From: Escherichia coli
GTDB lineage: Bacteria; Pseudomonadota; Gammaproteobacteria; Enterobacterales; Enterobacteriaceae
Length of the DNA stretch: 64,000 nt
Direction: 5' to 3' (one strand)
NCBI RefSeq assembly: GCF_965641715.1
Contig: NZ_OZ282453.1
The position numbers are program-made. Shown here piece by piece: positions 29,801 through 32,800 of the stretch; position 1 is the first letter of the stretch, and each line of letters opens with the position of its first letter.

Positions 29801-32800
29801 ACGGCAATTGATGACACCATGCGTGCTATCGGCAAAAAATAATATTTAATATGTTACCGCGTCGATGAATTCGACGCGGTATTTTAGCTAACGGGGATCA
29901 GAACTTATATTTCAGGCCCACCATCACTGCGGTGTCATTGTAGCCATTATCACCCAGCTGCACGCCCACATTACCCCAAACACTGGCCGCCGGATTCAGA
30001 TTGCCATTTACGCCAAGTTTAATTTCCCCCAGATTACGCGCCCCGTCTTGTTCGACTTTCACACCGTTCATTGAGACAGCAAAATCTTTACTGTTATGGA
30101 TCCAGTTCATTTCAACAAAAGGTTCAAAGTCGTCACCGTGCGGACCGCTGTTTTTTTCCTGAGTACGAATAAAGGTGCGGAAACCAAGTCGGGTCTGGAT
30201 GTTGTTATTTGCGTCATTCTCAATACGTGAGCCATTGGCTTCGGTGTGCGCATTATGATCGACGCCCATCCAGATAGCCTGTGCCTGTGGCTGGAAGATC
30301 CACGTATATTTCGCCGCTTCCAGACCAAAGGATTTATTCAGGGCAAAGCCGTAACCCGCTTCCAGCGAGACGGTTGCGCCTTTCGCGCTATAGGATTCAT
30401 AGGCTAATTCATCCCCTTTCACCGAGTTTTTAAACCAGCTATATTGCGCCCAGGCGTCAATGTATGCGCCTTTTTTACTGATGTCATCGGCAAACCAGGT
30501 GGCATACAGCCCTGCGCTATAGCCTCTGACACTCCCTTTCGAACGATAATCCGACACGCTGGAATGAGTTGAGTTGTAGTCGCGGGCATAACCAGCCATC
30601 ACTCCCAAACGCCAACTGTCGCTGTCGGTAAAACCACCGGTTAACAGATCGGCCCCTAACTGCGAGACGTAGCGATGCGAGGTCGTTCTCAACTGTCCGT
30701 TGCTGTCACGCCAGGCATTATGCCCGCCAATTTGACGTAGCCAAAGTCGGCTTGAACGCTCCTGTTCAGTTACAGGATCGATGTAACGCGTTTCACCTGC
30801 ACGATCGTTCAGACGCATAACAAAAAGAGTGTTAGCGGCTGCCAGGTTGGCGACGTAACTTCCAGCTTCGGGGCGCAGGACGGGGGTAGGCGCAACAGTA
30901 GGCGCTGAACTTCCTCCGGAGTTTGTTTCACCGCCGCTCGTTGCCTGGAAGTTAGTCAGATACCAGTTTTTATTGGTCGCTTCGGTATTACCTCGGGTTA
31001 ATGAATATTCGTAGGCACCGGCGAAAATCCTCGAATCCTTAATAAATTCTCCATTTGATTCCCCCTCAACGCTGATAATCTCTATCCCATTTAACGTGTA
31101 AGCCCCGCTGCCGCCAGCATTGGTAACTTTAACTCGGGTTGTCCCAGAGGTATTTCCATTAATAACGACTTTATCCGTAGCTGAATTATCATCACCCAAT
31201 TCAGTTCTGAGATGCAATACGCCATTATTACCAACGTAATTTTCAGTTATTGTTAATCTTGTTGGTTCGAAATCCCTTCCATCTGCCCGGGAAATATAGA
31301 CCGTACTATTGTCAACCGTGAGCTTGCTCACCGTTGAGTCAGCTTTAATATCCCAGGTACTATTATCTGAAAGCGACAGATAGGTATGAGTGTTATCATC
31401 TGTTGAAAGATTGGCTGAACCCGTTATTTTTGAATCAGTTGCATCAACGGTCAAATGACCTTTAATATTATTGATAAAAACATCTGCAGCCGATGATACC
31501 TCACTATCCGTAATGGTCACGTTACTCGTCTCATTTTTATTGTAGAGGATTTCATTTGCTGACCGTAGTGAGCTACCAGATAAAATATCTACCGTTGCTT
31601 CCTGACCATTTATGGAAGACTCCAGCACAATTCCAGCCCCCTGATGCGCGACTGCAGATGTATTTTTCAGCGTCACCGTGCCGCCATTATAAATTTTAGC
31701 AATCGCGGCGTCAGGACCCATTGTATAAATTTCGCCCTGGTTAAATGAAACTGTCCCCTGGCGAGCAGCGATGGCATGAGCATTGTCCCCATGCGTGGTG
31801 ATATCAACATCGGTTAATGTAACGCTGGCATTGGTATAATCAAGCTTGTCACCAGCCTTGACGACAGTGCCATTAGCGTAAGCGGCATAACTTTCTGTTC
31901 CGTGGGTTGTTATCTCCCCTTTTGCCATATCCAGTTTTGCTTTGGCGCTATTTTCATTACTTCCTGTATCGGCAGTACTTTCTTCATCAAGAGAAGATAC
32001 ACACGCACGCGCGCTTCCGGGAGATGCACACGCAAGAACGCCGACTGCGTGATTACCCGCAGTAACGATAAAAGTATTACCTCCGTCAGAAAAAGAGGGG
32101 GTAACCAAACCGTCAGAGTTGACTCTTATTATGGTATCAGTATTCAGGTTTCCACTCGTTTGACTTAGCAAACCAATTGAGTAATCCCCCGTTGTGACAA
32201 TCGTATTATTACCCCGCAAAGTGACAGCACCGCCATATTCACTTACGACTGCGCTAGCTGTATATGCTTTGCTTAGAGGACTATTGTCAGAAGGATATAA
32301 ACCGCCCGTTGTTACAATGACGCCATTGTTAATGGCTAAATTGCTACCCTCTCCTGCAACAGATACACCGTAACTTCCATTACCCGTTGTTATAACTAGC
32401 GCATTATCAATATCTTTTACTTCTCCATCTTTTATTTCCACAGCATGTTTATACTCATCGTGATGAATAAACTGATCAGCATATGCATTACCCACCGCCA
32501 GAGCAATAAGTCCTAAACTAAACCCGGGGAGTTTTTTCAGTTTCATAGATTAACCATCCATTCATTGGATTAACAAACATTCCTGGTCAAATAACCTATG
32601 AGTTCAGATTACCAAAACGGAGGGTAAAGACAAAAACAAAAGCACAAGAAATTTAAATAGATAAACAGCGACAATATATAAATGATAAATAAGTCGGCAT
32701 TATCATTTTTCACCTTATTTTCATGACATTGATCACTTTGAGGTGACGATTTTGTTTAACAAATAACTCTTCGACATCACAATCATTGATAGTTGCCATA

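Follow-up and report, generated by a model that had tools for sequence, protein, structure and literature searches.

Classical (type Va) autotransporters cross the inner membrane by the Sec pathway, after which the C-terminal barrel is inserted into the outer membrane by BAM, the passenger is threaded outward, and the autochaperone nucleates its vectorial folding. The surveys of Wells 2010 and Zude 2014 are reportedly the classic accounts of autotransporters in Escherichia coli. In MG1655, the counterpart position of the gene described here is occupied by ycgH (b4491; NC_000913.3 1219601-1222248, 2648 bp), which RefSeq annotates as a pseudogene. A second name, ECIAI39_1904, comes from a gene of E. 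coli IAI39; at least one survey used it as a virulence marker and found that ST131 lacks it, whereas ST38, ST405 and ST648 have it (PMC5654935). The literature searched, which left the main autotransporter surveys outside, yielded a gene-presence survey and mentions of the K-12 pseudogene but no study of what YcgH or ECIAI39_1904 does.

We asked how these two names relate to an open reading frame in a 64,000-nucleotide stretch of E. coli DNA, hereafter the window. The ORF lies at 29898..32546 on the minus strand and runs from ATG to TGA as a complete coding sequence of 882 amino acids plus the stop codon, with zero internal stops in the ORF listing. The preliminary description had claimed an intact ORF of this length at this position without giving the strand, and that claim holds. 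We conclude, with a probability of roughly 85%, that the ORF is a complete AIDA-I-type type Va autotransporter, an ECIAI39_1904-family allele at a mosaic ycgH locus, and a probable surface β-helix adhesin.

Related copies of the gene are separated by single-base indels, and an error in a single base call could be enough to create or destroy the frame, so we considered whether the ORF is a chance frame or the product of an assembly or sequencing error that masks a frameshift. When stops were counted in the orientation of the ORF, its own frame contained the terminal stop alone and the other two frames contained 47 and 100, and a stop-free run of 882 codons is therefore beyond chance. The identical 882-residue protein is deposited in NCBI as "ECIAI39_1904 family autotransporter adhesin", and the exact sequence recurs on at least 24 contigs, each from a different public assembly, which rules out sequencing error as the source of the open frame. 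Intact versions of 882 or 892 residues also occur in nine other sampled RefSeq genomes. We consider the chance that the frame is artefactual to be negligible.

The gene is flanked upstream by pdeG and ymgF and downstream by the convergent ymgD and ymgG, and the order ymgF, gene, ymgD, ymgG is syntenic with K-12. When the K-12 locus was aligned to the window ORF, K-12 ycgH proved to be interrupted in frame by a stop at codon 507 and to lack one nucleotide near nt 2574. These lesions, together with the RefSeq annotation, confirm the statement in the preliminary description that ycgH is a disrupted pseudogene in K-12; the same intact ORF in K-12 would have spoken against that description, but the K-12 copy is broken and the window gene is open. 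The simplest reading of the shared locus and neighbors, the identical signal peptide, the near-identical barrel and the K-12 stop and frameshift would be that the window gene is the undamaged ancestor of K-12 ycgH, from which K-12 differs solely by inactivating mutations. The DNA alignment argues otherwise. Identity to K-12 is 97-100% from about 400 bp of the upstream spacer through approximately nt 66 of the ORF, apart from one 60-nt bin at 80%, drops to ~50% from nt 67 to ~1660, and returns to 92-100%, mostly at least 95%, from nt 1677 to the end.

The same pattern was found in the protein when the comparison was made with an intact K-12-type YcgH of 887 amino acids, which is present in other strains such as PapRG-06-5. 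The signal peptide is identical at 23 of 23 positions and residues 554-882 at 327 of 329, whereas the passengers are collinear and only 38-41% identical (34% over the N-terminal 380 residues and 48% over the autochaperone part). The passenger thus falls short of an orthologue-level match to K-12 ycgH or to the 887-residue YcgH in protein (38-41%) and in DNA (~50%). The divergent cassette covers residues 24-553 (30888..32477, minus strand; 44% GC), the whole mature exposed domain, and it is bounded on one side by the signal-peptidase site and on the other by the point where the pore linker begins. Third-position GC content shifts at the same junctions, from 0.54 in the barrel of both alleles to 0.36 (36%) in the window cassette versus 0.27 in the K-12-type cassette. 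RefSeq/PGAP likewise names the two forms differently, as "ECIAI39_1904 family autotransporter adhesin" for the window type and "autotransporter YcgH" for the other. Since the real intact counterpart of K-12 ycgH is the distinct 887-residue protein, it is very unlikely that the window gene is simply an undamaged K-12 ycgH. Accordingly, the earlier identification of the gene as ycgH is right for the locus, signal peptide and barrel, and the passenger belongs to another allele. As read from these alignments, the part that differs between the two alleles is exactly the predicted mature, surface-exposed domain. The presumed promoter, signal peptide, linker and barrel evolve like the core genome and are common to K-12 ycgH, and the passenger exists as two deeply diverged, AT-rich cassettes.

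The ORF shows each part expected of the type Va class. Residues 1-23 (32478..32546, minus strand) form a predicted Sec signal peptide, MKLKKLPGFSLGLIALAVGNAYA, cut after AYA and followed by DQF; read by eye, it has a basic n-region with three lysines, a 14-residue hydrophobic core and an A-x-A site, and residues 1-29 are disordered in an AlphaFold2 model. This model, built from a 73-sequence alignment of family representatives, has a mean pLDDT of 87.2 and a pTM of 0.81, and it places β-strands at residues 34-531, an α-helix at 559-573 and twelve long barrel strands at 600-881. The N-terminal part of the passenger, residues 34-403 (31338..32447, minus strand), is a predicted right-handed β-helix that holds the sole cysteines of the protein, C173 and C182, in a short loop. 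The pair is kept in both alleles, and cysteines so closely spaced are in general compatible with the export of autotransporters. The β-helix is capped at its C-terminal end by residues 404-516 (30999..31337, minus strand), which match the autochaperone family AC_1 (PF18883) in Pfam with E=6.9e-30, an overlapping Pertactin domain is called at residues 406-531, and a PDB sequence search matched residues 435-534 to the autochaperone of IcsA (3ML3). Together with the predicted strands, these matches identify a β-helical passenger with a C-terminal autochaperone.

Downstream of the passenger, the linker at residues 554-599 (30750..30887, minus strand), where conservation with K-12 begins, carries the predicted pore-spanning helix 559-573 (…PVLRPEAGSYVANLAAANTLF…) and aligns to the AIDA-I linker, as expected of a linker that passes through the pore. 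Some columns of its motif RPEAGSY…ANTLF are invariant or nearly so in the 73-sequence alignment. The outer-membrane β-barrel occupies residues 600-882 (29901..30749, minus strand), with the Autotransporter β-domain (PF03797) at 601-860 (E=5.7e-41) and 373 bits to the NCBIfam barrel model TIGR01414. The protein ends in …GLKYKF, so a 12-stranded barrel is paired with a terminal phenylalanine. Additionally, residues 431-882 match the AIDA-I transport unit 4MEE in the PDB sequence search with E=4.7e-84. The signal peptide and the C-terminal barrel with an aromatic last residue, both part of the preliminary description, are thus borne out by sequence reading and by Pfam. The repeat-rich passenger that it also described has no support in the DNA, where Tandem Repeats Finder returned no tandem repeats within the gene, and the passenger contains only degenerate β-helix rungs. 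No Rfam matches were found in or near the gene.

Based on this anatomy, we propose that the 23-residue signal peptide would take the protein through Sec and then be removed, and that the C-terminal 12-stranded barrel would be inserted by BAM. The ~530-residue passenger would then be threaded outward, leaving the linker helix in the pore, and would fold vectorially from the autochaperone into a β-helix resembling those of pertactin and UpaB. The β-helix would remain anchored on the cell surface, where its most likely role is in adhesion or biofilm formation. It should be kept in mind that "adhesin" is a family label and that β-helices also occur in enzymes, lyases and tailspikes among them. The passenger could accordingly be a secreted or surface enzyme or toxin, for example a glycan-degrading β-helix, or it could be released from the cell. 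We regard this as unlikely, given that the best matches to the passenger are the autotransporter passengers of Vag8, pertactin, UpaB, Hap and IcsA, that matches to enzymes are at 8-16% identity and reflect the common fold, and that searches of Pfam, NCBIfam and PDB sequences found no catalytic domain (protease, Peptidase_S6 or lipase). The two acidic residues reportedly needed for self-cleavage of AIDA-I align to D458 and N476 here; the first is conserved and the second is replaced by Asn, which we treat as no more than a hint. An adhesin that stays on the surface is our preferred reading, and the anatomy lends plausibility to the suggestion in the preliminary description that the strain may keep a functional surface protein.

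We then considered whether selection has acted on the two parts of the protein alike. Among six intact alleles, Nei-Gojobori estimates of dN/dS were 0.10 for the barrel and 0.61 for the cassette, with one pair at 1.6, and synonymous divergence was alike in barrel and cassette (~0.05). These ratios show strong constraint on the secretion module and, in the exposed domain, either weak constraint or diversification.

The population distribution of the gene gives a further view of its fate. Of 5426 complete E. coli genomes, 5088 have a match to the barrel and signal-peptide parts and 1786 have one to the window-type passenger. From these 1786 carriers an even-step sample of 60 was surveyed, and the gene was intact under the family name in 9 and broken or partial in 51. 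The broken or partial copies comprise 44 with split ORFs, 6 annotated as pseudogenes under the family name and 1 represented by a fragment only. The 44 split copies, which include O26, O111, O121 and many commensals, share a 1563-bp match and a 1-nt deletion near nt 180, sequence-verified in O111 alone and assigned by annotation in the rest. The intact share is therefore ~15% of carriers and ~5% of genomes, with a rough binomial range of 7-27% given the small sample.

At least six different lesions were found among the broken copies: the 1-nt deletion at nt 180, accompanied in O111 by another at nt 2077; a premature stop, either at codon 12 or at codon 701; loss of a single nucleotide at nt 505; in O145:H28, a stop together with a deletion of 98 bp; and insertions of IS1 or IS3. 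Phase variation by slippage was considered as a source of these lesions and rejected, since the sites lie outside long homopolymers except for one A6 tract, and we read the lesions as ordinary decay. The flanks of the window are closest to O145:H28 genomes (99.4% over 24 kb), and the one O145:H28 strain examined, RM13514, carries a broken copy. Divergence from RM13514 is ~0.4% in the flanks and ~1.3% in the passenger. Among complete RefSeq genomes the best match to the gene is at most 98.9%, and the window allele is at least 25 substitutions from every one.

The K-12-type allele has fared similarly. In a spread sample of 40, most copies were 2648-bp K-12-like pseudogenes, three were of intact length and two of these were confirmed intact. 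A short form in ST131 was tried as a third passenger type and proved to be of the K-12 type, shortened by two internal deletions. Most E. coli have only a pseudogene of whichever cassette they carry, and the window copy is among the intact minority. Outside the species, a search of one genome from each of 100,044 species gave a single passenger match at 93% identity, on a 1.7-kb contig in a "Collinsella" MAG that is almost certainly E. coli DNA; this peptide-pattern scan needs exact 8-residue matches and is blind to distant relatives. A passenger dN/dS of 0.61 and the 85% of carriers with broken copies show that the gene is dispensable in most lineages, and for these reasons the intact frame is no proof of current function.

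The flanking DNA bears on whether the gene is expressed. The spacer between ymgF and the gene (32547..32945, minus strand) is 399 bp long, AT-rich (34% GC), mostly 97-100% identical to K-12 and presumed to hold the promoter, although a simple promoter scan of the spacer found nothing convincing. Its K-12 counterpart was reported to bind RpoD holoenzyme in SELEX, with a flag for H-NS (PMC3946193), and to be a sigma-S RNA polymerase ChIP-seq peak (PMC4447067). By analogy with K-12, where the spacer is nearly the same, the gene is probably expressed weakly or conditionally, under control of the H-NS/RpoS type and with probable repression by H-NS. The promoter TTGACA-19-TATAAG reported in PMC3946193 was tried for the window allele and rejected; it is absent from the window and in K-12 occurs, with one mismatch, only inside the K-12-specific cassette. 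Between the convergent stops of the gene and ymgD is a G+C-rich hairpin (29855..29881) that is terminator-like on the plus strand and has a worse-placed T-run on the minus strand.

Alternatively, the frame could be intact in a gene that is silent or decaying, one that is cryptic, silenced by H-NS, under relaxed selection, spared so far by disabling mutations and making no contribution to the phenotype of the strain. The predominance of broken copies with at least six lesions, the broken copy in the sister lineage O145:H28, the passenger dN/dS and the similarity of the AT-rich spacer to K-12 DNA flagged for H-NS binding all fit such a gene. Nevertheless, the barrel dN/dS of 0.10 among intact alleles indicates purifying selection on the secretion machinery, the identical protein is kept in separate assemblies on at least 24 contigs, and binding of sigma-S RNA polymerase at the corresponding promoter region of K-12 suggests that transcription is conditional and not lacking altogether. 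On balance we consider a silent gene possible, though the less likely state. This alternative is about expression and is compatible with the structural identification of the product as a type Va autotransporter.

Public databases already contain the gene, its family name and the exact protein, and the pseudogene status of the K-12 copy is textbook annotation. Not found stated in the literature searched, again with the main autotransporter surveys outside the search, were that a single locus has YcgH and ECIAI39_1904 as its alternative passenger cassettes, that the junctions fall at domain borders, and that both cassettes are mostly pseudogenes. This two-cassette pattern is tidy yet unsurprising for a bacterial surface protein. 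As a tentative and rather doubtful extension, ycgH could be a two-cassette surface-antigen locus in which ancient AT-rich passenger haplotypes sit in a core-like backbone, repeated independent loss reflects antagonistic selection on, for example, a phage receptor or immunodominant antigen, and rare intact copies are kept for niche-specific adhesion. In practice, "ycgH" and "ECIAI39_1904" should be read as alternative passenger alleles of one locus and not as two loci. Surveys that score ECIAI39_1904 as present or absent from a DNA match, as PMC5654935 does, will overestimate it, since ~85% of carriers hold a broken copy. For a first functional test of this adhesin family, the material of choice is an intact copy such as the window gene, which comes from a relative of the enterohaemorrhagic O145:H28 lineage.

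We conclude by placing the protein among known autotransporters. The N-terminal Peptidase_S6 domain that marks the SPATEs was absent from the Pfam results. AIDA-I, the diffuse adherence adhesin, differs in its repeat-bearing passenger, which is unmatched here; the NCBIfam AIDA-I model aligns to residues 431-882 only, and its score of 321 is far below the cut-off of 1200. The ~19-residue imperfect repeats of the self-associating group (AIDA-I, Ag43 and TibA) are likewise missing, with neither DNA repeats nor a Pfam repeat family detected. The β-helix passengers of pertactin and Vag8 from Bordetella and of UpaB from uropathogenic E. coli are 18-21% identical in sequence to the window passenger. 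K-12-type YcgH shares the locus, upstream spacer, signal peptide, linker and barrel, cysteine pair, autochaperone and a collinear passenger, and it differs in the sequence of that passenger (38-41% in protein, ~50% in DNA) and in the lower GC3 of its cassette. The ECIAI39_1904 name was probably assigned by a BLAST-based rule, because NCBIfam release 20 has no HMM specific to the family. Within that family the resemblance is full-length and close: one database entry is identical to the window protein, the other members, of 882 or 892 residues, are 95-97% identical to it over 100% of their length, and the 892-residue forms differ from it by a 30-bp (GEVK-type) insertion at nt 133, which the window gene lacks, and are otherwise structurally the same.

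Some intact alleles of the autotransporter gene at the ycgH locus encode 892 aa and carry a 30-bp insertion at nt 133 of the ORF, numbered from the start of the 882-aa gene (window about 32414), as seen in the comparison locus L011 and the comparison protein P0003. Close to the N-terminal end of the passenger, the insertion triplicates a pentapeptide of the GEVK type (KDGEVKNGEVKGGEVKY), which is present in one copy in the window; the pentapeptide copy number thus represents a minor length polymorphism located at the beta-helix tip. In strain 700481, where the autotransporter gene is intact, IS1 lies directly upstream with ycgX adjoining (comparison locus L030, 159-856), and we conclude that the pdeG-ymgF-bluF region is deleted in this strain. 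Other sequence may thus have taken the place of the native upstream region of the gene there.

Next to the ycgH locus, between ymgJ and minE (window 28137-29158), there is another decayed autotransporter site, which corresponds to ycgI of K-12. O145:H28, to which the window flanks are closest, retains a 345-bp barrel remnant at this site (comparison locus L003, 10509-10853), and the window is shorter than O145:H28 by a net 272 bp in the 28-29 kb region. Strain 06-00048 carries a full-length YpjA/EhaD-like autotransporter at the ycgI site (comparison locus L002, 1-2655). Degradation is thus the usual state of both of these adjacent autotransporter loci.

Between roxA and phoQ, O145:H28 carries a satellite-like, integrase-bearing element of about 10 kb (comparison locus L026, 4426-14863) that encodes an integrase, a RepA-like helicase, a capsid protein and a small terminase; this element is absent from the window, since phoQ adjoins roxA at 47151-49808. 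At the right end, shortly after potB (52453-53316), a lambdoid prophage tail module occupies 53750-64000, with minus-strand genes for a protein with a tail-fibre N-terminal domain (53750-56152), an Ail/Lom outer-membrane protein (56211-56810), the tip attachment protein J (56880-60377) and the C-terminus of a tape-measure protein (62757-63998). Neither potC nor potD was seen between potB and the window end, and the prophage may therefore be located at or within potC.

The hlyE gene (21877-22932) gives a full-length match to Pfam HlyE, and the C0299 sRNA (21708-21786, minus strand; Rfam, 106 bits) lies between umuD and hlyE. At the left end, synteny with O145:H28 indicates that 98-5502 appears to be an iron-uptake-like cluster, with a FecCD-type permease, an ABC ATPase, a SAM methyltransferase, ModD and a TonB-dependent receptor as its members; we know of no such cluster at the matching position in K-12. 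A 482-aa ORF with a leucine-rich-repeat match (Pfam LRR_4) is located between dadX and cvrA (10850-12298, plus strand), an interval that is empty in K-12. By position, its counterpart in O145:H28 appears to be a "hypothetical protein" beside IS3, and its product could be an effector-like protein.
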